From Planctomycetota bacterium (GTDB lineage Bacteria > Planctomycetota > UBA8108 > UBA1146 > JAJFFE01): a stretch of 64,000 nt of DNA. Of the stretch, positions 18,976-46,400 are shown in pieces (positions within the stretch are counted from its first letter, which is position 1; the number at the start of each line of letters is the position of its first letter). The position numbers were made by a program, and so were the translations under genes. The DNA is taken from NCBI GenBank assembly GCA_046154185.1, contig JBJXGE010000032.1, forward strand, positions 139,163 to 203,162, in the 5' to 3' direction. The notes under the pieces are model-generated. The model was not told the origin of the DNA. It was given only the letters and a program-made list of their open reading frames with translations, and did not search any database.

Positions 18976-20496
18976 TTACCGCAAACAGTCGAGCCCGTCG
19001 AGCGTCGGATCCGGTCCGAAGGAATCATCGCCCGGTAGCGGGAGCGGCGGTGCCGACTGAAAGAGCCGCGCGAGCACACTCACGGCATCGGCGAGATTGA
19101 GCGCGCCGTCATCGTTCGAGTCCGCGGCATCCGCGCACGCGACGGCAGCTCCGGCGAGAAACAAATAATCCAGCAGGCGGATCGCGTCGCTGATATCGAC
19201 CGTCCCGTCGAAATTCGCGTCGCCGCGGCGAAAATACGCACGCAAGCACGGCTGGTCAAATGGCGGGGCTAAAGCCGCAACGCGCGGATCCGTGAGGCCG
19301 AAGGTGAGAAAGTCCACGAGTCGGACTTTGTCCTCGTCGAGCAGGTCGAGCACAAACATCTCGGGATCCAAATGATCGTCGAACTCGCCGCCGATGTCGT
19401 AGAACTCCACCACCTCCATGAGCGTGGACTTGCCGCCGTTATGAAAATACGGCGCCGTCAAACCCACGTTACGCAAGCTTGGTGTCTTGAACTTGCCGCG
19501 GTCGTCGAACTGCAATGTCACTTCCATGCGACCCACATCATCAAAGCTCGGTCGCACGCCAATGTTGTGGTAGTCCCCATCGTTGAGCGTCGCCCCGCCA
19601 TGACACCCTGCACACAGATCGATGAAGAACAACATGCCGACGACCTGTTCATCACTCAATGCGTCGGATTGGCCGCCGAGAAAGAGATCGAAAGGCGTTT
19701 GGTCGGGAACCAACGTCCGCTCGTAGCTCGCGATCGCGAACGCGATCCGAGCTGGTGTAATCTCGCTATCACCGAATGCGAGCGCAAACATATCCGGGTA
19801 GTCGAGCCCGGCGGCGCGCGCGGCCGCGAGGTCGACGGGCAAGTCCGAACCAAGTGCGAGAGGTGTGACGGTTGCGAGTTTTTGCTCGACATCGCTCCAC
19901 GTGCGACCGACACAGCTCATTTCGGCAGCCGACAGTATTGGCGTGAGCGCTTGGTTCTCGAGCGCGCCGCCAGCGGGAATCAGGGTTTGACCCGTGATAG
20001 GGTTGATGAAAACCTCTCCGGCTGCGCCGTTCCAAAAAACCTCTGGATCGTACGCGGAGGCGATCACCGAAGACGCGTTGCGGCGCGTCACTTGACGATC
20101 GGGATGGAACACGCCGTCGTCGATCGTCGCCCCGCCGCAATCATGACGCACGATGCCGATGGAGCCGAGCGCATCGTCACCGGTGCCGAACAGCAAGTCC
20201 GCCCCGGGATGGCGCGACAGCGGCGAAAACGCCCGCGCGTCGGCGCCGCCCGCCGTCATCGCGTGGCAGCTTCCGCACGCGACCGTGTCATCCGCGCTCA
20301 ATTGTTCGTCCCAAAACAGGAACTTGCCGAGCAGAGCCTTTTCAGCCGTGAGCGGATTTTCGGGCGGCACGGGCGGCGGCCCGAGCGGAATCGGTGTCAC
20401 TTGCGCAATGAGTCCCGCCGCGCCAAGCGCGAGAAACCCGCAAACCCAAGCCAAGCGCCCGCAGCGAGCCGCTGCGTTGAGTTTTACGCTCTGCAT
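18976..20496 (-). CDS. Di-haem cytochrome c peroxidase (CCP/MauG family) with C-terminal dockerin-type repeat
   Basis: Two haem-binding motifs CGSCH and CAGCHGG. C-terminal GDANFDGTVDISDAIRLLDYLF ... ADSNDDGALNLADAVSVLARLF dockerin type-I-like repeats. N-terminal signal peptide. Confidence 0.8.
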   Translation of the reverse strand: MQSVKLNAAARCGRLAWVCGFLALGAAGLIAQVTPIPLGPPPVPPENPLTAEKALLGKFLFWDEQLSADDTVACGSCHAMTAGGADARAFSPLSRHPGADLLFGTGDDALGSIGIVRHDCGGATIDDGVFHPDRQVTRRNASSVIASAYDPEVFWNGAAGEVFINPITGQTLIPAGGALENQALTPILSAAEMSCVGRTWSDVEQKLATVTPLALGSDLPVDLAAARAAGLDYPDMFALAFGDSEITPARIAFAIASYERTLVPDQTPFDLFLGGQSDALSDEQVVGMLFFIDLCAGCHGGATLNDGDYHNIGVRPSFDDVGRMEVTLQFDDRGKFKTPSLRNVGLTAPYFHNGGKSTLMEVVEFYDIGGEFDDHLDPEMFVLDLLDEDKVRLVDFLTFGLTDPRVAALAPPFDQPCLRAYFRRGDANFDGTVDISDAIRLLDYLFLAGAAVACADAADSNDDGALNLADAVSVLARLFQSAPPLPLPGDDSFGPDPTLDGLDCLR

Positions 20497-20791
20497 TTTT
20501 TTCCTGGCGAGTCAAGTTGAGTGTCGAGTAGTTCGCCCGTCAAACCGAGGAACAAGATATAGGTAGCGAACGCGCGTGGCTAGCGTCGTTGCACGCAGCG
20601 CGCGTAGCTCCGCGTCCGGTGGCGGGCTGCGGAGATTCTTTTTCGCCAGGACCGAGTCTTGCGGCGCGGCGGCATTGAGAAACGACAGCGGCGCCGAAGC
20701 CACTGTTTCGGCGCCGCTGTCGTATTCCGTGCGAACTTCTAGGCCTCAGACCAGCCCGATGCTAAGCATTCGCGTCACGCAGTTGGCGTTG

Positions 20792-21595
20792 CTAAAAGTT
20801 GGAGACACCCATGTCGCGGAGCGCCGTGCGAACCTCCGCGGCGCACCGGCGCGCATCGCGCGCGAGGTCATCGATACGGGCGAACTCCCGTTCGATTTCT
20901 TTGAACAGTTCGAGTGCGGTCAACAACTGCTTTTGCGCCCGGAGGCTGGCGGCTTCGAGCAAGAGTTCGCGGCCGATACTCACCAGATCCGCCTGATCCG
21001 CCTCGACCTTCGCCAACACTTGGCCGGTGAGTTTGTCCTTCTGCTTGGACAAGCGCTCCAGCAGCAGCAACGCTTTCGCGTACTGCTTGTCGTCGATGTG
21101 TTGACGCGCCTCGCGCTGCATCCCGAGGTGCTTTTCCTTGAGTTCGACGCGCTTCTCGTTCAGCGCGAGCGCCGAGCTGATCACTTTCTGATATTTCTTC
21201 GGATCCGTGCAAGTCTGCACTTTGCTCAGGAGTCCGCCCTCGACGTCGAGCAAGAGCAACGCCGGCTTGCTTCGATCGAGTTCGAATCGCTTGACCATGA
21301 GATCACCGGCTTGGGCGAAAGTCGTCTTCACGCATTTGAAATTCAGCGCGACGTCAACCACCGGCTTGTAACGAAAGATCGAGCGCTCGAAGTTGGCGGC
21401 GCAACAATCTTCGTTCATATTCTCGGCATAAACGTAAACGAGAATCGGCCGCAGCGAGCCTTCTTCTTGGTTGATCGCCCGCTCGAGCGTCAATTGAACC
21501 CAGGGCAGCCGATTGTTTTCACCGGGCACAAACGGTTCTTGTCCGGCAGCGCCACCACCGCGAGGGCCGCTACTTGTTCCACCGCCACCGCCCAT
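20792..21595 (-). CDS. Thioredoxin-fold (Thioredoxin_7/DUF255-like) domain followed by a coiled-coil region. The ORF may extend upstream through an in-frame TGA to 21721 (see findings).
   Basis: LRPILVYVYAENMNEDCCAANFERSIF...KPVVDVALNFKCVK resembles the thioredoxin-like fold around the redox-motif position. C-terminal half is helical and K/E/L-rich. Preceded in the same frame by a TGA, and before that a 25-aa signal-peptide-like ORF with a good SD. Confidence 0.55.
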   Translation of the reverse strand: MGGGGGTSSGPRGGGAAGQEPFVPGENNRLPWVQLTLERAINQEEGSLRPILVYVYAENMNEDCCAANFERSIFRYKPVVDVALNFKCVKTTFAQAGDLMVKRFELDRSKPALLLLDVEGGLLSKVQTCTDPKKYQKVISSALALNEKRVELKEKHLGMQREARQHIDDKQYAKALLLLERLSKQKDKLTGQVLAKVEADQADLVSIGRELLLEAASLRAQKQLLTALELFKEIEREFARIDDLARDARRCAAEVRTALRDMGVSNF

Positions 21596-22216
21596 GCGCC
21601 CGCCACCGCCTGCAGCTCCACCGGAGCCGCAACCGCCCGCGCCTCACTGACCATAAAGTGGATCAGTCGCGAGCGCACAAAGCACCAAGCTGATCCCCAA
21701 GAACTCCCGAATCCGAACCATGCTGATCCCCTTCCGCTGGAAGTCGCAAGGCGTCGAGGGCGCCGCCACATTGAGCAGTTTTTTCATCGCCTCAATCGGT
21801 ATCGGTCGCCGAGGCACGAAATCGTTGTTCGAACAGTACGGCCGATCGCTGCCGACTGTGAGAATTATTTCCCGGGCGAACGGCGGCGCGACGATAGGGC
21901 AAAGATTAGCACCGCGCAAGCTTGCGGCACCGCGCCGCGCTGGCGCCAGGACTATTGATCTCGTCACTAATCCACTCAGCACCCGCGAGTTAGAGCGGAT
22001 AAACGTCGGGTCTGGCGGACCACGTGGCAACCGGAACGATTGCCCCGAAACGTGGTCCAAGAGGGCTTCTAAACGGCCGTTTCTCGACGGGCGCGAACCT
22101 TGCCATGTAAGGAGCGAGAGTCTTTATCGGACCGGTCGCTACGCCGAACAGATTGAGTTCGGTTTCGAGAAGCAAGGAATGCGATGATCCCTCGAACAGT
22201 CAAACCACTCGGCTCC

Positions 22217-27357: not shown

Positions 27358-27846
27358 TCATTCCTCTTCGCGAGCGACCGCATCGCGACTCGAGCGGGGC
27401 GCGCGACCCTGCAAATACGATCGCGCCGGATTCACGAGAAATCGGCGCCGCACGGACTCGCGACCCAGCAGCATGCGAAATCCCATCGCATGCCGACTCG
27501 TCAGAGACAACTCGATCGGAAATCGTTCGTCGTTCAATTCCAACAATGTCGAGATCACCCAGCGCAGCTCTTGCTGGCCGCTCGAGTTTCGCACGTGCCG
27601 GCGATCGATCACCGGCGCGCGCGCGAGAATCGGCCGCGCATCGTCCTGTTGGTGGGGAAAAACTTTGAACCGCAAATAAAGCGTGCCGGCGCGCCGGTAC
27701 TCATTGACGTCGACGGCATGCAAGACGGACGTGCGCGCCCCGGTGTCGACTTTTGCTTCGAGCGACTTGATCGCGAGCTCCGGCAGACACACCCATTCAC
27801 GCCAGCCGATCACCGGGAGACTGCGCCGCCGGGGTGCATTCTTCAT
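27358..27846 (-). CDS. Retropepsin-like putative ATP-dependent zinc protease family protein (RimK-associated type)
   Basis: IGWREWVCLPELAIKSLEAKVDTGARTSVLHAVDV matches the conserved core of this family. Start set at MKNAPRRR. Confidence 0.6.
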   Translation of the reverse strand: MKNAPRRRSLPVIGWREWVCLPELAIKSLEAKVDTGARTSVLHAVDVNEYRRAGTLYLRFKVFPHQQDDARPILARAPVIDRRHVRNSSGQQELRWVISTLLELNDERFPIELSLTSRHAMGFRMLLGRESVRRRFLVNPARSYLQGRAPRSSRDAVAREEE

Positions 27847-27927
27847 TCGCGAATTCCACCTTGCGTTCGCGCGTACTGTCGCAACTCCGGACACGACCCG
27901 TCCGCACCGACGGTGCGACCGCGGCCA

Positions 27928-28785
27928 TCATGGGCAATTCGCCGCGCCACCGCAATCGAGCGTATCGCCGGAGGGGTCGATACCGCATAGCGGATACGGT
28001 GCCGGAAAGGCCGGCCCGCTCTCAAATAGGAAATTCAGGTGATAAACGGCATCGGCGAGATTGACTTGCCCGTCGTCGTTGCAATCGAGCGCATCCACGC
28101 ACGACGCACTCACGCCCTCGAAGAGCACCAGCAAAACTAACACGCTATCCGCGATGTTCAGGTTGCCGTTGCCGTTCGTGTCGCCACGGACAAAGGGTAA
28201 ACCAAGGTCCGGGACGAGCGAGACGAGACCACTGTCACCGGTTGCGAACCGCTCGGTCAAACCGATCACGACGACGTTTGCAACCGCCGGCGCGCCGAGC
28301 GTCGCGTCGTAATCGAGCGAGCTATCGACGCCGGTGAGATCGCCGATGAGCGCTGCGGCCTGCGTCGAGTAATCGAGCGAGAGCACGGGCTGGGCCGTAG
28401 GAAAGCTGATGGGCGTCGACATGTTGAACGTGTAGACGCAACCCACGGTGAACCCATCGATATAGGTATTCACGGCGAAAAATTCCGGGCCCGTGCCGCC
28501 GCTGAGCGCGGCGAGAACGCCAGTTGGCGCAACGCCATCGATGAGCAAATAAGTCTCGTCGTGCCGTACGCCGAGCGAGAGGGCCAGCGTGGCATTTGGA
28601 AAGCCGGCGCTCGATCCAAGTTCCGTGACGCTCGCGGAAATCGTGAAGCTCGCGACGCCATCCGCGGGTTCATATTCCACGGTGACATCCGGCAGCGAGA
28701 ACACAAAACCCTGCGCTTCTACCTGCGCCGTCGTCGCAACAATCAGCAACGCGAACCCAATGCAAACCGCTCTCGCCAGCCGCAT
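27928..28785 (-). CDS. Secreted hypothetical protein with C-terminal dockerin-type repeat
   Basis: Signal peptide MRLARAVCIGFALLIVATTAQVEA. GDTNGNGNLNIADSVLVLLVLF ... DCNDDGQVNLADAVYHLNFLF dockerin type-I-like repeats. Confidence 0.65.
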   Translation of the reverse strand: MRLARAVCIGFALLIVATTAQVEAQGFVFSLPDVTVEYEPADGVASFTISASVTELGSSAGFPNATLALSLGVRHDETYLLIDGVAPTGVLAALSGGTGPEFFAVNTYIDGFTVGCVYTFNMSTPISFPTAQPVLSLDYSTQAAALIGDLTGVDSSLDYDATLGAPAVANVVVIGLTERFATGDSGLVSLVPDLGLPFVRGDTNGNGNLNIADSVLVLLVLFEGVSASCVDALDCNDDGQVNLADAVYHLNFLFESGPAFPAPYPLCGIDPSGDTLDCGGAANCP

Positions 28786-39977: not shown

Positions 39978-40005
39978 TTGCATAAACTACTCCGCCGAAT
40001 ATTGT
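39978..40005 (+). promoter_or_regulatory. Candidate sigma-70-type promoter for the Bcp gene (TTGCAT - 16 nt - TATTGT)
   Basis: Hexamers read at 39978-39983 and 40000-40005, about 90 nt upstream of the ATG at 40094, which has GAGGAAGG as its SD. Confidence 0.35.
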
Positions 40006-40093
40006 GGCGGCCAGCGTGGGTCTTGGACGGTCTTCGACACGCAGTTGGCCGACAGGATTGACTCGGGAAGTTCAGCGCGAGAGGAAGGCCGAA

Positions 40094-41014
40094 ATGGCCA
40101 AGGCGAAGAAAAAAACCGCGAAATCCAATGCCGGCAAAGCCGCCAAAAAGCAGGCTCCCAGCAAGAAAAAGCCGACCGCCAAAAAGAGCGCGACCAAAAA
40201 GTCAGCGGCGTCCTCGGCGAAGACCTCGAAGAAAGCCGGCAAGAAACCGACCGGTACTAAGAAGAAAGTCGCCCCGAAGAAGCTCACCACCAAAAAAGTC
40301 GCCGCCAAAAAAACGGCGAAGAAACCGGCCAAGCCGAAAGCCAACTTGAAGGCGAAGACGACACGGCAGACAGGTCGTAGCGCGCCGGTGACGACGTCGG
40401 ACAGCCTACTCATCGCCGCGAGCTCGAGGCAGCCGGCTGCCGTCGCGCTCGCGCCGGAGCTGCACTCCGCGGTCGGCCGCCAACTCCCGGCGCTGACGCT
40501 CAACAATCAACGCGGCGAGGCAGTGCACTTGCACGACCTCGCACAGCGCGCGGGCCGACTCGTCCTCTACTTCTATCCAAAAGATGACACCCCAGGATGT
40601 ACGACCGAAGCTTGCGACTTTCGCGATCAGCACAGTCGCGTGCTCGCGACGGGTGCGATGATCGTTGGCGTGAGTCCGGACGATACCGAGAGCCACGCGA
40701 GCTTCGCTGGCAAATATCAGTTGCGTTTCGATTTGCTTGCGGACACCCAACATGAGCTCGCCGACGCGCTGGGAGTCTGGAAATTGAAGGAATTTAGCGG
40801 TCGACAATTTCATGGCGTGGAGCGAGCGACGTTTATCGTCGATCAGGACGCTCGCGTTCTCAGAGGCTGGCAACCGGTCAAGGTGGACGGCCATGTGCAG
40901 CAAATCGTCGACGAGTTGGAGCGTCTGCCAATGACCTCGGGCGAAACAGCACTCGCGACAGCGAGCGCCGGCGGCGGAAACGGCGACGCGTTGAACGATT
41001 TCTTCAAGACGTAA
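40094..41014 (+). CDS. bcp: Peroxiredoxin Bcp (thioredoxin-dependent thiol peroxidase) with ~100-aa N-terminal histone-H1-like Lys/Ala-rich tail
   Basis: FYPKDDTPGCTTEACDFRD peroxidatic/resolving Cys motif. N-terminus MAKAKKKTAKSNAGKAAKKQAPSKKKPTAKKSATKK...KKPAKPKANLKAK. Confidence 0.85.
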   Translation: MAKAKKKTAKSNAGKAAKKQAPSKKKPTAKKSATKKSAASSAKTSKKAGKKPTGTKKKVAPKKLTTKKVAAKKTAKKPAKPKANLKAKTTRQTGRSAPVTTSDSLLIAASSRQPAAVALAPELHSAVGRQLPALTLNNQRGEAVHLHDLAQRAGRLVLYFYPKDDTPGCTTEACDFRDQHSRVLATGAMIVGVSPDDTESHASFAGKYQLRFDLLADTQHELADALGVWKLKEFSGRQFHGVERATFIVDQDARVLRGWQPVKVDGHVQQIVDELERLPMTSGETALATASAGGGNGDALNDFFKT

Positions 41015-41793: not shown

Positions 41794-43413
41794 TTATTGC
41801 GGCGCGAGCATTTTCTCGAGGGTCGCCTTGAGTTCTTTTTGACCGCCTTCGCCAAACCCGACGTCGAACGAGACGACTTTGCCTTCGCGGTCGAGCCAGA
41901 AGCTGGTCGGGTAACCGCGCACGCCGTAGCTTTCGCTCGCGGTCTTGCCGCCCATGAGCACGATCGGATGCGTGAGCTTCTTCTTGTCGACGAACCGTTT
42001 CACTTGCTCGGCCGATTCGTCGTAGCCGTTGACGGCGAGCACCGAAAAACCACGCGTCTTGAACTCTTCATGCAGTGCCGTTAAGTGCGGAGCCTCCGCA
42101 CGACAAGGCCCTCAGCCAACCCCCCAAAACGTCAGGAGCACGACCTTGCCTTTGAAACTCGCCAGGCTGACCGGTTGGCCATCGAGTCCGTTGAGCGTGA
42201 AATCGGGCGCCGGCTGGCCGACGAGTTTCTGCAATTTCTCATCGCCGCCCGCATCACCCTTCATCCAAGCGGCGAACTCTTCGGCTTGCGCGACGAGCGC
42301 CTGCGCGACATCGTCGAGACCGGCGCGCGGAAAACGCTTCGCAAAGTCCGCAGCGACTGCCTGCATTTTCGCGACGTCTTGCATGTTTTCGTTCGCGTAG
42401 TGGAGCACATTGAGCGCGCCGTCGAGCTCCGCCAGGTAGTCGTCTGGCAGCTTGTTGCAGGCGACCTCCCGCAGCTCGACTTCGCGTTCCATACGGTATT
42501 GCGCGCCGACACCAATCTGAGTCATCGAGCGAAACGCGACGACGCGTCCCTGGTCGAGATTGATTTCAAAACGCTCGTTAAATTGAAGGAGCTGCGGGTT
42601 CTCGGGTTCGAATTCGTCGCCGTCCACCTCGCTAGCGGCGGGCGCAGCTTGGCCGTCGGCGGGTTTCTCCGCCGGCTGCGGCGGTTCCGCTTGGAGGTCT
42701 TTCTTGGCCTCGCCCTGCTCACCGGCGCCGGACTCTGGGTTTTCCGGCGCCGCTTCGGCCGGTTCCGGCCCACCCATTTTGAGCTCGATCGGCAACGGTC
42801 CAACCGCCTCGATGGTCACCTCGGCGACGCGCTCACCCGCCGCGTTCTTCGCGTGCGCAACAGTGATGCGCTGCTCGATGTCATTCCGGATGCCGAAGAA
42901 CTCGAACGCCCGCTTCACTTGCGTCGTCCCAGGCGTACCCATCATCGTTGTGTCGAGTTCCGGAAACGGCGGTACTACCTCGCCGGGCCCGCCAATCATC
43001 ATCGCCGGCTGTGCACCGGCCGGCAGCGCTTTGGTCTCGGGTTGAAATCGATTCCGCGCCAGCTCCTTGACCAAGATCGCGGCGCTCGGGCGCACGCGAA
43101 ACATGTCGTTCGAACCGCTCTTGAGCTGATGCCGCACGACCCACCCGAGGCGCAGTTTTCCGTCGGCCGCTTGCGAGAGCACTTGCAGCTTCGCCGCGAC
43201 GTCGCTCTCCATGACCTGTGGCTCTGACTGCGGCTCGCCTATGCCGCTGAACGCCATGCGGCTCTTGCCTTGATACTCGATCTCCGTACCAACCGGGAGT
43301 CGCACCCAGTCCTTCACGCCATCGGCTGTTGCGTTGCGAGCGAGGGCTGCAAGACCTAGCGGCAGCACGACGACGCCAAGAACAATCAGCCAAGCTCGCC
43401 AAGTCCTCTGCAT
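41794..43413 (-). CDS. Large secreted protein with C-terminal TlpA/ResA-like thiol:disulfide oxidoreductase domain. In-frame TGA at 42112-42114 occupies the first Cys of the CxxC motif (candidate selenocysteine, U-G-P-C).
   Basis: The two ORF-track pieces (42112-43470 and 41794-42042) are in the same frame. The joint reads ...[67 protein letters not shown]...[14 protein letters not shown]. Start set at ATG 43411-43413 with GGAG upstream, followed by a hydrophobic segment. Confidence 0.6.
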
Positions 43414-43444
43414 TCCATCTCCATTCTTGCGAAGGCGTCGGCCC

Positions 43445-46400
43445 TCACATGTTGCGCCGGTACTGACCACCCACTTCGTAGAGCGCGTGCGTCATCTGGC
43501 CGAGACTTGCGACGCGCACGGTATTCATGAGTTCGGCGAAAATGTTGCCGCCGTGGGCCGCGACTTCCTGCAAGCGCTTGAGCGCCGCAGGCGCCGCCGC
43601 CGCGTGGCGCGCTTGAAATGCGCGCAGCTCCGCAATGCGTTGAGTTTTGATCTCTGGCGCACAACGGCGCAATTCGACCTCCCGCGGCTCGCTCGCGCCC
43701 GCGTCATCGCGCGTGAAGGTGTTCACGCCGATGACCGGCAGCTCGCCTGAGTGTTTCTTCGTTTCGTAGAGCAGCGACTCGTCTTGAATCTTGCCGCGTT
43801 GATATTGCCGCTCCATCGCGCCGATCACGCCGCCGCGATCATTCAGCCGCAAGAACTCCTCGAGCACGGCTTCTTCCACGAGCTCCGTCAGCTCCTCGAC
43901 GATGTAGGCGCCTTGCAGCGGATTGTCATTCCTCGCGATCCCAAACTCGCGCGCAATGATGAGCTGAATCGCCATTGCGCGACGTACGGATCCCTCCGTC
44001 GGCGTCGTGATCGCTTCGTCGTAAGCGTTCGTGTGCAGCGAATTGCAGCTATCGTAGTAGGCAGTGAGCGCCTGTAACGTCGTGCGAATGTCATTGAAGT
44101 CGATCTCCATGGCGTGCAACGAGCGGCCGGAGGTTTGAATATGGTATTTGAGCTTCTGCGAGCGCGCGTTGGCGTGATAGACGTCGCGCATCGCCACGGC
44201 CCAGATGCGGCGCGCGACGCGGCCCATAACTGAGTACTCCGCATCGAGCCCGTTCGAAAAAAAGAACGACAGATTCGGCGCGAAGTCGTCGATGTGCATG
44301 CCGCGGGCGAGATAGTACTCGACATACGTGAGCCCGTTCGCCAGCGTGAATGCGAGCTGCGTGATGGGATTTGCGCCCGCCTCCGCTATGTGGTACCCGC
44401 TGATCGAGACCGAGTAATAATTGCGGATCTGTTGCTCAATGAAAACCTGCTGCATATCGCCCATCATGCGGAGCGCAAACTCCGTGGAGAATATGCAGGT
44501 GTTTTGCGCCTGATCCTCCTTCAGGATGTCGGCCTGCACGGTCCCACGCACCGTCGCAACCGTTTGGGCGCGGATCGCCGCCAGCTCGTCGGTGTTCGGT
44601 GCGCGGTGCGTGCGCCGCGTGAAGACTTCGACTTGCTGATCAATGGCGGCGTTGAAAAACATGGCAAGGATGATCGGCGCCGGTCCGTTGATGGTCATCG
44701 ACACCGAGGTGCTCGGGTGGCACAGGTCGAAACCTTGATACAACTTCTTCATGTCGTCGAGCGTGCAGATGCTGACGCCGCTCTCGCCGACTTTGCCATA
44801 AATATCCGGGCGTTCGGCCGGGTCTTCACCGTAGAGCGTCACGCTATCGAAGGCGGTCGAGAGCCGCTTCGAAGGCTCACCGCGACACAAATAATGAAAA
44901 CGCGCGTTGGTCTGCTCCGGTGGGCCTTCGCCCGCGAACATGCGCTTCGGATCCTCATCACGCCGCCGGAACGGAAAGACGCCGCCCGTGAAGGGAAAGT
45001 CCCCCGGGAGATTCTCGAGCATGAGAAACCGCAGCAGCTCCGCCTTCGATTCAAAGCGAGGTAGCGCTATGCGCGAGAGTTTGCTGCCGGCGAGCGTGAC
45101 GGTCTTGAGTGGCTCGCGCCTTTCCTCGTCGCGGATCTTATAGACCAGCTCATCGGCGCAGTACGCGTTGCGCCGCGCCGGCCATGATTCGAGCAACTGG
45201 CGCGCGTCGGGCGCGAGCTCGATGTTCTGGGCGCGCGCGCGGAGGCGCGCCGCCGCGTCTGCGCCGCCCGGCTCGGCGCCGACCAGTTCGGCGCTGCGTT
45301 CGAGCGCTTCGAGGTCGCGCGCGCGCTCAACTTCCAGCGTGACGCGCTGTTTGTAGCCACGCACTGCGCGCACGATCTCGAGCAAATAATTGCTGCGCTG
45401 CGCCGGAATGATGCTCGCTCGCTCGACGACTTGATGGGTTGCGACCGCCGCGGGCATTTGCCAACCTGGGACATCGCGCGCTCGTGCCCACGTCTCGAGC
45501 TCCTGCAACAGTCGCTGATAAAACCGTTCTACACCCGGATCATTGAAGTGGCTCGCAACGGTCCCGTAAACCGGTAGGTCGTCGTCGCGCACCGAGCCGT
45601 CGAACAGTTTCCGGCTGCGTCGATACTGTTTGCGTACGTCGCGCAGCGCATCTTCGCTACCGCGCTTGTCGAACTTGTTGAGTGCGATGAGATGCGCATA
45701 GTCGATCATGTCGATTTTCTCGAGCTGGGTGCTTGCACCGTAGTCGCCCGTCATCACGTAAATCGCTACGTCGGAGATATCGGCGATCTGAGAATCGCCT
45801 TGGCCAATACCGGAAGTCTCAACGAGCACCAAATCGAAACCATCGTTTTTCAGAACTTGTAGCGCACTGCGAATTGCGGCCGGCAACGCCGCACCGCTCT
45901 GACGCGTTGCGAGCGAGCGCATAAAAACGCGCGGGTGATGCACCGAGTTCATGCGAATGCGATCGCCGAGCAGCGCGCCGCCGGTGCGCCGCTTGGTGGG
46001 ATCGGCGGAGATGATGGCGAACCGACGGTTCGGAAAATCGGCGAGGAGTCGCCGTAAAATCTCGTCGGTGAGTGACGACTTGCCGGCACCGCCGGTGCCG
46101 GTGATGCCGACGACCGGGATTGGCGCGCCGGGCGTCGCGGTCGCAGGCGCCGTGGTGGCTTGTTCTTCGACTTCGGTGATGCGACACGGCAGCGAGCCGT
46201 TCCGTTGCGCGCGGAGTTCGCCACCGCGCTGGCGCTTCACCCGCTCGAGCATGTCCTGAATCATCCCGTGCAAGCCGAGTCGCCGCCCATCCTCCGGTGA
46301 ATAGATGCGATCGATCCCATATTGCTCCAACGCGCGAATCTCAACCGGCACGATCACGCCGCCGCCGCCGCCGAAGATGCGAATCCACGGCGCGCGCTTC

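Follow-up and report, generated by a model that had tools for sequence, protein, structure and literature searches.

A family of predicted exported selenoproteins in marine Planctomycetota with selenocysteine on an N-terminal tether

Organization of the locus

The sequence analysed here, hereafter the window, is a 64-kb stretch (64,000 nucleotides) of contig JBJXGE010000032.1 from a Planctomycetota bacterium. On its minus strand, between positions 20792 and 21721, lies a reading frame containing an in-frame TGA that is predicted, with good confidence, to be a single gene for a genuine exported protein containing selenocysteine (Sec, or U in motifs). Its features are listed in Table 1. A start codon preceded by a Shine-Dalgarno-like sequence, a signal peptide, the TGA and a Gly-rich linker in frame with the downstream open reading frame (ORF) had all been reported in a preliminary description of this DNA, and all were found again when the sequence was re-read: downstream of the TGA, GAGGCGSGGAAGGGGR is encoded in the same frame and runs into a 267-aa ORF located at 20792-21595.

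Table 1. Features of the predicted selenoprotein gene and related elements of the window
Feature	Position	Strand	Basis or remark
Shine-Dalgarno-like sequence GGAAGGGGA	21727..21735	minus	5 nt upstream of the ATG; putative function
Start codon ATG	21721-21719	minus	Read from the sequence
Signal peptide MVRIREFLGISLVLCALATDPLYGQ, 25 codons including the start	21647..21721	minus	Sequence; equivalent peptides in orthologues
In-frame UGA, proposed Sec codon (mature residue 2)	21644..21646	minus	Sequence; TGA/TGC interchange in orthologues
Gly-rich linker GAGGCGSGGAAGGGGRMGGGGGTSSGPRGGGAAGQE, 36 codons	21536..21643	minus	Cys at mature residue 7; also encodes the hairpin
SECIS-like hairpin UUGCGGCUCC-GGU-GGAGCUGCAG	21610..21632	minus	10-bp stem; 12-nt spacer after the UGA
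Thioredoxin-like domain	21203..21535	minus	AlphaFold, Foldseek and profile matches; opens with the conserved PFVPGENNRLPW motif
CC at the CxxC position	21406-21401	minus	Within the thioredoxin-like domain
Third conserved Cys, C129	21211-21209	minus	Within the thioredoxin-like domain
C-terminal all-helical TPR-like domain	20813..21202	minus	AlphaFold, Foldseek; TPR Pfam matches in some members
Stop codon TAG	20792..20794	minus	Sequence
Perfect 19-bp G+C-rich hairpin followed by TTTCTC	20682..20723	minus	ca. 70 nt past the stop codon; -38.5 kcal/mol
Second selenoprotein gene, Redoxin/AhpC-TSA	41794-43470	minus	452-codon ORF ends at TGA 42114-42112 and continues in frame

The peptide MVRIREFLGISLVLCALATDPLYGQ contains two Arg, a hydrophobic core and small residues at its end. 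Based on the -3/-1 pattern, cleavage by signal peptidase I is likely to occur after LYG, with Q as residue 1 of the mature protein; in the relatives described below, L/V-x-A/G is found at the proposed cleavage point and the signal peptides end with (A/G)-Q or A-G. Two other types of signal were considered and rejected by eye, namely a lipoprotein signal (lipobox), one residue separating the A/G from the Sec/Cys pair (the dyad, see below), and a Tat signal, the twin-arginine motif being absent.

Translation would thus be expected to start at ATG 21721 and to yield a 25-residue signal peptide of the Sec (secretory) type, after which a hairpin of the selenocysteine insertion sequence (SECIS) type, located 12 nt downstream of the UGA at 21646-21644 and encoded within the Gly-rich linker, would assist the decoding of this codon as selenocysteine. 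Translation would then continue into a thioredoxin-fold domain followed by a TPR-like domain. Once the signal peptide is cleaved, the mature protein would begin with Q-U-G-A-G-G-C, and the Sec-containing dyad would occupy residues 2-3 of a disordered tether of 25-35 residues.

Orthologues share an in-frame N-terminal arm

Comparative sequences were all drawn from metagenome-assembled genomes (MAGs) or metagenome assemblies. In a search of 5.8 billion proteins, the only matches were three relatives and the NCBI call for the window gene (P0001), which is a 245-aa "hypothetical protein ACKVX7_07200" of a Planctomycetota MAG with a called start located 22 codons inside the ORF. An exhaustive profile search returned 76 cluster representatives at E <= 1e-3 and a second, word-indexed protein search added few sequences. 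In the three metagenomic homologues (3/3), an in-frame signal peptide and TGA/TGC codons were found upstream of the called start, these reading ...ALHAQ-TGC-TGA-GGG in L001, ...FVHGQ-TGA-TGA-GG in L003 and ...PLYGQ-TGA-TGC-GGG in L004. Scanning one genome per GTDB species revealed 17 loci, nearly all in marine Planctomycetota MAGs, and the same succession of signal peptide, dyad and linker occurs in the 16 of these species-representative loci for which upstream DNA was available (16/16). Two further loci, L022 and L023, were retrieved when metagenomes were scanned with a distant subfamily of 300 residues as seed; their products share only ca. 27% identity with the window protein, and the corresponding stretch reads ...KAAAG-U-C-PPSSS. 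Two MAGs are titled "Proteobacteria bacterium" (L009, JAFMMO010000080.1) and "Bacillota bacterium" (L012, QNYK01000038.1), and their family genes are nearly identical to those of Planctomycetota MAGs (see L012 and L013), so that, from sequence similarity, both MAGs are probably mis-binned or mislabelled.

Altogether, the 22 unique N-termini (22/22) are composed of a signal peptide, one residue (Q or G), the dyad and a Gly/Pro/Ser-rich linker. Many of these N-termini are related to each other and the counts do not represent independent events, yet at least five clades are represented, which differ in their stems and dyads. Linkers of the orthologues are 24 to 35 codons long and occur in nine lengths, none of which is out of frame or contains a stop, and they are followed by a conserved P-[YF]-x-P-[GF]-E-x-x-x-L-x-W motif and then by the domain. 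TGA and TGC were found to replace one another at both codons of the dyad, which is CU in 12 sequences, UC in five, UU in two and UG in the window protein; the motif used for this count missed one UC member (L006), and two further CU members were found on metagenome contigs. The proposed mature starts of the relatives are therefore Q-C-U-G, Q-U-C-G, Q-U-U-G or G-U-C-P, among which the window protein is the odd member with its Q-U-G-A-G-G-C start, in which only one Sec occurs and a Cys follows five residues further on. In L003 (1307-1312) and L005 (3180-3185), two consecutive in-frame TGA codons (Q-U-U-G-G) are followed by one GCCGGCG-GGUC-CGCCGG(U/C) hairpin. The prokaryotic selenoprotein motifs listed in PMC13188914 do not include adjacent Sec-Sec.

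Relatives free of Sec were also detected. Some have an arm that contains Cys only (P0037, AQ-DC-GGG; P0023, AQ-GC-PP; P0072), while in more distant ones (P0044, P0047, P0049, P0055, P0062 and P0068) the signal peptide directly precedes an F-x-P-G-x-D-x-x-L-x-W motif and the active-site region has one Cys, with no C129, linker or Sec. Since in these distant relatives the signal peptide is placed directly on the domain, the domain is an exported one and the signal peptide located upstream of the UGA is needed. These homologies strongly support the predicted export of the window protein via its signal peptide.

The preliminary description had considered that the UGA might be a real stop followed by reinitiation at ATG 21595, or that the gene might be disrupted. 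In the first of these alternatives, the 25-codon upstream ORF would be unrelated or correspond to a leader, and a cytoplasmic protein would be produced from ATG 21595 or from the NCBI start of P0001 (245 aa). Gene callers and NCBI do annotate all members in this way, an ATG is present at 21595 and no Sec machinery was found in the 64-kb window or in the loci. This scenario is nevertheless very unlikely, as the called starts vary from one member to another and cut off the PGEN..LPW motif or even the thioredoxin domain (P0003, P0004), and the signal-peptide ORF, UGA and linker are in frame in 22/22 sequences. Neither alternative is supported, because an ATG is often missing from the linker of the orthologues, the frame is kept over nine lengths and the Sec-free homologues are exported. 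Indeed, every orthologue with upstream DNA consists of one continuous frame with TGA or TGC at the site, and the location of Sec just past the signal peptide rather than at a CxxC, which had been noted as unusual, turned out to be the defining conserved feature of the family.

In L004, a JGI contig, the frame shifts by 1 nt at ca. 250-265, past the PGENDRLPWIQ motif and ahead of the thioredoxin-like domain, with a TTCC run nearby. This shift is probably due to a sequencing error, and the public gene call begins after it. That a contig of the family has such a frameshift further downstream could be taken to indicate that the gene is a pseudogene or that the UGA is an assembly error, an explanation which is hardly credible given that more than 20 independent assemblies, produced by different projects, share a TGA at this site and that TGATGA is found in two lineages.

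A hairpin following the UGA is conserved in position

The preliminary description had placed a hairpin with a GGU loop at 21607-21627, its loop occupying positions +22 to +24 relative to the UGA. Both the hairpin and the loop position (21622-21620) are real, while the hairpin coordinates were ca. 4 nt off and are corrected in Table 1. An 81-nt fold around this hairpin has a z-score of -3.0 when compared to dinucleotide shuffles, and the hairpin itself is stronger than 97% of dinucleotide shuffles and 96% of synonymous-codon shuffles. Hairpins of -14 kcal/mol or better occur at the same distance from only 8 of the 1733 TGA triplets counted in any frame on both strands of the window (0.46%), that of the target included. 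The SECIS of E. coli fdhF has a GGUC loop whose G and U lie ca. 20-21 nt past the UGA, a geometry shared with the family.

Across the family, MAFFT alignments of the hairpin region placed the stems out of register. A covariance-model and pair-counting approach was dropped for this reason and statistics of energy and position were compared with three controls, using as score the best simple perfect-stem hairpin in a model of our own, with a loop start at +12 to +36 after the first UGA. A hairpin was found after the UGA in every orthologue. In a first set of 20 sequences, the mean energy was -13.0 kcal/mol versus -6.0 +/- 0.86 in dinucleotide shuffles, with none of 300 shuffles reaching the observed value, and it was -4.5 kcal/mol when the scan was moved 45 nt further downstream. 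With 22 sequences, the mean was -12.6 versus -6.2 +/- 0.8 in synonymous-codon shuffles, in which the protein is kept and codons are drawn from each gene's own usage. None of 500 such shuffles reached the observed value, which indicates that selection acts on the RNA structure itself, over and above any effect of coding for a Gly-rich peptide, and further argues against the UGA being a true stop.

The start of the best-scoring loop falls between +14 and +25 in 21/22 sequences and between +19 and +25 in 19/22; in L006 the best-scoring hairpin lies at +36, with another one at +17. Loops are GGU in three sequences, GGUC in four (L003, L005, L022 and L023), GGC in two, GUN in six and CGUGC in two, with single occurrences of GGA, GGGU and GUUA and other loops in L006 and L011, and a G is present among the first two loop bases in 19 of the 22. 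In contrast to this conserved position, the stem sequences differ between clades, with at least six unrelated stems (GGCUCC/GGAGCU, GGCCCCC/GGGGGUC, GCCGGCG/CGCCGGC, GCUGCC/GGCAGC, CCCCGGG/CCCGGGG and GCUCGGCC/GGUCGAGC). Conservation of the hairpin, whose lack would have spoken against recoding, was thus observed, and the proposal that the UGA is recoded as Sec by means of a SECIS-like hairpin is supported by the open frame, the TGA/TGC interchange and the conserved hairpin.

Selenocysteine decoding in this organism

TGA ends many other genes of the window as an ordinary stop, which indicates that the code is not reassigned. A second gene of the window with a thioredoxin fold and an in-frame UGA, already suggested in the preliminary description, does exist. 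Its product matches AhpC-TSA (4.9e-27) and Redoxin (1.3e-26), and the UGA falls exactly at the first Cys of CGPC (FWGVG-U-GPC) and is followed by a GUGCGGA-GGC-UCCGCAC hairpin with the GGC loop at +18. Judged by these similarities, this gene serves as an internal positive control for Sec decoding in the window; its public gene call is presumably split or truncated. Selenoproteins of the UGPC Redoxin type are well known (PMC13188914, Table 1), and full gene sets for Sec insertion are known in some Planctomycetes (PMC4807772). The Redoxin gene of the window and these gene sets lend indirect support to the presence of Sec machinery in this genome.

These data also bear on the idea that the UGA is read through without Sec, by a near-cognate Trp, Cys or Arg tRNA or in a reassigned code, with the hairpin merely stimulating readthrough. 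Hairpins located past stop codons can promote readthrough in some systems, and the lack of Sec machinery in the 64-kb window and the loci would fit such an event as well. The probability of this explanation is nonetheless quite low: TGA is a normal stop in many genes of the window, it is specifically exchanged with TGC (Cys) in the orthologues, the hairpin geometry and the G-U loops match those of bacterial SECIS, a canonical UxxC Redoxin is encoded in the same window and Sec-insertion gene sets occur in some Planctomycetes (PMC4807772).

In this DNA of 62% G+C, scanning generically for TGA with coding-like composition on either side gave too much noise and missed even the target. The ORF pair at 27358-28785 was examined as another UGA fusion and rejected, as it corresponds to two adjacent genes.

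Protein domains and fold

No Pfam or NCBIfam match was obtained with the window read-through protein. An AlphaFold model built from an 11-sequence alignment (pLDDT 82, pTM 0.63) has a disordered linker portion with pLDDT below 50, a thioredoxin fold at residues ca. 33-131 with the order beta-alpha-beta-alpha-beta-beta-alpha, in which KPA precedes beta3 as expected of a cis-Pro loop, and a helical repeat domain at residues 132-261 (pLDDT 84-96). The best Foldseek match in the PDB is E. coli YbbN/CnoX (3qou, thioredoxin fold plus TPR, E = 1.9e-5), and DsbD-gamma and thioredoxins are matched with target-normalised TM-scores of 0.6-0.65. Profile searches likewise match DsbD-gamma and 2kuc, with the CC aligned to the CxxC site, and sub-threshold Pfam matches were found to Thioredoxin_7 in 8/30 members and to DsbH in 5/30; some members also match TPR models of Pfam. 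The thioredoxin-like fold that had been proposed for the first half of ORF 20792-21595 is thus supported by both the AlphaFold model and Foldseek. Two fusions, P0058 and P0074, have an N-terminal esterase-like domain followed by a PG..L.W motif and a thioredoxin-like domain without Cys, showing that the domain is used as a module.

The active-site region lacks a true CxxC and contains instead a vicinal CC (D-C-C-A-A-N-F-E-R), which is invariant in close members; in the wider family, only the first Cys of the pair is universal. Nearly all close members also conserve C129, which lies in Q-x-C-x-D-P. Both this residue and the second Cys of the vicinal pair are retained in nearly all members that have the linker (CCAAN) and are missing from the distant Sec-free homologues, a distribution which fits a functional coupling of the arm and the domain. 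This comparison suggests that the Sec dyad and linker were inserted as a module after the signal peptide and ahead of the domain, and were gained together with the second Cys and C129.

Proposed function of the arm

It may tentatively be proposed, by analogy and with somewhat more doubt than belief, that the Sec/Cys dyad on its tether serves as a mobile redox centre, or "swinging arm". The dyad would cycle between a selenol/thiol and a selenenylsulfide (or diselenide) and would exchange with the CC pair at the CxxC position and the nearby C129, while a client or partner in the periplasm would be bound by the helical domain.

Several observations weigh against the interpretation of this gene as a selenoprotein gene or against the proposed role of its arm. 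Neither selA, selB, selC nor selD is visible in the 64-kb window or the fetched loci, no tRNA-Sec was detected when the window and 21 loci were scanned for tRNA genes, and tblastn with an E. coli SelD query gave no match in the window or loci. Rfam searches gave no match either, whether for the whole window at the gathering threshold or for the site at E <= 10, and no bacterial SECIS model of Rfam applies. G+C-rich sequence coding for Gly readily forms hairpins, and the simple hairpins of L011 and L023 are weak while that of L004 is marginal. The window protein is without a vicinal partner (U-G, not U-C) and, from its sequence, could be a drifting member of the family. P0037, whose arm is in the Cys form, has neither the CC pair nor C129, which argues against an obligatory coupling of the arm and the domain. 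Finally, gene neighbourhoods are heterogeneous across the loci.

A less probable function, which also assumes a genuine exported selenoprotein, is that the dyad, the CC and C129 serve as ligands of a soft metal or metalloid (Hg, Cu(I), As(III) or Ni), with the tether acting as a capture-and-handover arm comparable to the Cys pairs of MerA, MerP and ArsD. A vicinal CC is rare as a redox motif and common as a soft-metal site, as in the C-terminus of MerA or in ArsD (Cys12-Cys13-Cys18), which has a thioredoxin fold, and the Q1-U2...C7 of the window protein resembles the N-terminal Ni hook of nickel superoxide dismutase. Three conserved Cys in the domain combined with two chalcogens in the arm would give a high-affinity site, and a neighbouring gene in L010 encodes a copper protein of the plastocyanin/azurin type. 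Metal binding is further favoured by the joint presence of CU and CC motifs in two organometallic selenoprotein systems, HgcA/HgcB and SAO (Haft and Gwadz, bioRxiv 10.1101/2022.07.06.499078). However, no metal-resistance or transporter gene adjoins the gene in the window or the loci examined, the neighbours (cytochrome c peroxidase; extracytoplasmic function (ECF) sigma and zf-HC2 anti-sigma factors) point, if anywhere, to peroxide or envelope stress, and the relatives by fold are thiol-disulfide proteins.

Relation to known selenoproteins

All source names found for members are "hypothetical protein". The family is not among the 119 prokaryotic selenoprotein families and subfamilies of a May 2026 review (PMC13188914), nor is it mentioned in the GOS paper, the preprint of Haft and Gwadz or the BSepDB paper. 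It would thus constitute a small family of marine Planctomycetota selenoproteins that is in no annotation or catalogue searched, and the public gene calls found for it would be wrong, being truncated, deprived of the signal peptide and named hypothetical.

The closest comparison is with bacterial thioredoxin-fold selenoproteins (UxxC/CxxU; Prx-like, Redoxin, DsbA-, DsbG- and TlpA-like; PMC13188914, Table 1). These have in common with the family an in-frame UGA, a hairpin in the coding region within ca. 20 nt, a G in the apical loop, a thioredoxin-like fold, export and Cys homologues, but their Sec lies in the active-site CxxC, whereas here it lies on an N-terminal Gly-rich tether and a CC occupies the CxxC site. 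CU-motif selenoproteins (the HgcA N-terminal extension, SaoL, SaoC, SaoB and KCU-star/MbdU) likewise have CU dipeptides, CC motifs and gene calls truncated at the UGA, and were recognised through this conserved truncation. The family differs from them by the absence of sequence relationship (no NCBIfam match) and of an organometallic neighbourhood, by the location of the dyad at the mature N-terminus of a secreted protein and by its hosts, which are aerobic or marine Planctomycetota and not anaerobes.

Mammalian thioredoxin reductase carries a C-terminal Gly-Cys-Sec-Gly redox arm on a flexible extension. The family shares with it a Gly-flanked Cys-Sec dyad at a flexible terminus (Q-C-U-G in 12/22 members), which could plausibly act as a mobile selenenylsulfide centre exchanging electrons with a dithiol in the protein body, but the arm is N-terminal, the protein is an exported thioredoxin/TPR protein instead of a flavoenzyme, the SECIS is in the coding region and UC, UU and (in the window) U-x4-C variants exist. 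With an N-terminal dyad and no flavoprotein domain, the family does not belong with the GCUG redox tails and the resemblance is one of functional analogy. If the swinging-arm function holds, the family would represent a natural bacterial counterpart of that arm.

Among proteins without Sec, E. coli YbbN/CnoX (PDB 3qou) also has a thioredoxin fold whose CxxC is degenerate, joined to a TPR-like helical domain, yet it is cytoplasmic, has no Sec arm and is only ca. 16% identical, with a whole-chain TM-score of only 0.27. DsbD-gamma and Pfam Thioredoxin_7 share sequence signals around the active-site helix; DsbD-gamma has a true CxxC and no helical domain, in contrast to the CC and helical domain of the family.

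The recoding mechanism is the known bacterial one. What appears to be new is the family itself, the location of Sec at the mature N-terminus on a tether, the replacement of CxxC by CC, the UC/CU/UU variability including tandem UGAUGA, and a linker that doubles as SECIS. Whether these features together define an unrecognised class of exported selenoproteins is a question on which the arguments seem evenly balanced; in such a class, the catalytic or ligand selenium would be placed outside the folded domain, in a Sec dyad at mature residues 2-3, at the tip of a Gly-rich tether of 25-35 residues that also serves as SECIS, the whole forming a module inserted before an older, Sec-free thioredoxin/TPR domain, and L003 and L005 would have Sec-Sec from UGAUGA. 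If so, a single SECIS would serve two consecutive UGA codons and give a vicinal diselenide, and the two lineages with adjacent UGA codons offer a test case for such double decoding. The family would also extend the prokaryotic selenoproteome by an unusual design in which selenium is placed on a tethered N-terminal arm of a periplasmic protein, and its linker would be a clean example of a sequence jointly constrained as a flexible peptide and as an RNA signal. Such N-terminal sites escape searches for Sec that consider only CxxC-like motifs or positions inside known domains.

Gene neighbourhood

In the window, a gene encoding a di-haem cytochrome c peroxidase lies directly downstream of the family gene, and similar genes adjoin it in ten other loci. 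The 19-bp hairpin found between the two (Table 1) is probably a transcription terminator; its short T run explains why a scan for consensus terminators missed it. One clade (L001, 190-5175; L007, L008, L010 and L011) has a conserved gene order composed of Transglut_core, the family gene, Aminopep (PF10023), ECF sigma and zf-HC2 anti-sigma, which suggests, from the predicted products, a control by envelope or oxidative stress. A Transglut_core gene has also been reported beside a planctomycete Sec-insertion operon (PMC4807772). Taken together, these neighbourhoods hint weakly at a role in redox or peroxide stress in the periplasm.

In at least 17 of the 22 loci, a gene encoding a dockerin-like C-terminal domain (D-x-N-x-DG repeats, four Cys) was found within ca. 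3 kb of the family gene. The window has two, at 18976-20496 (C-terminal ca. 100 aa) and 27928-28785 (C-terminal ca. 90 aa), at a density of only ca. 1 per 32 kb, and the other loci concerned are L005, L007, L008, L010-L021, L024 and L026-L028. These genes occur in four arrangements, and the N-terminal parts of their products correspond to cytochrome c peroxidase, to cupredoxin plus PKD or to large proteins of more than 1100 aa. The dockerin-like proteins may be clients of the thioredoxin/TPR protein, or the association could reflect inherited synteny.

Finally, a plus-strand gene at 40004-41014, near the UGPC Redoxin gene, encodes a Bcp/peroxiredoxin-like protein (YFYPKDDTPGCTTEACDF) with a long, Lys/Ala-rich N-terminal extension resembling histone H1.

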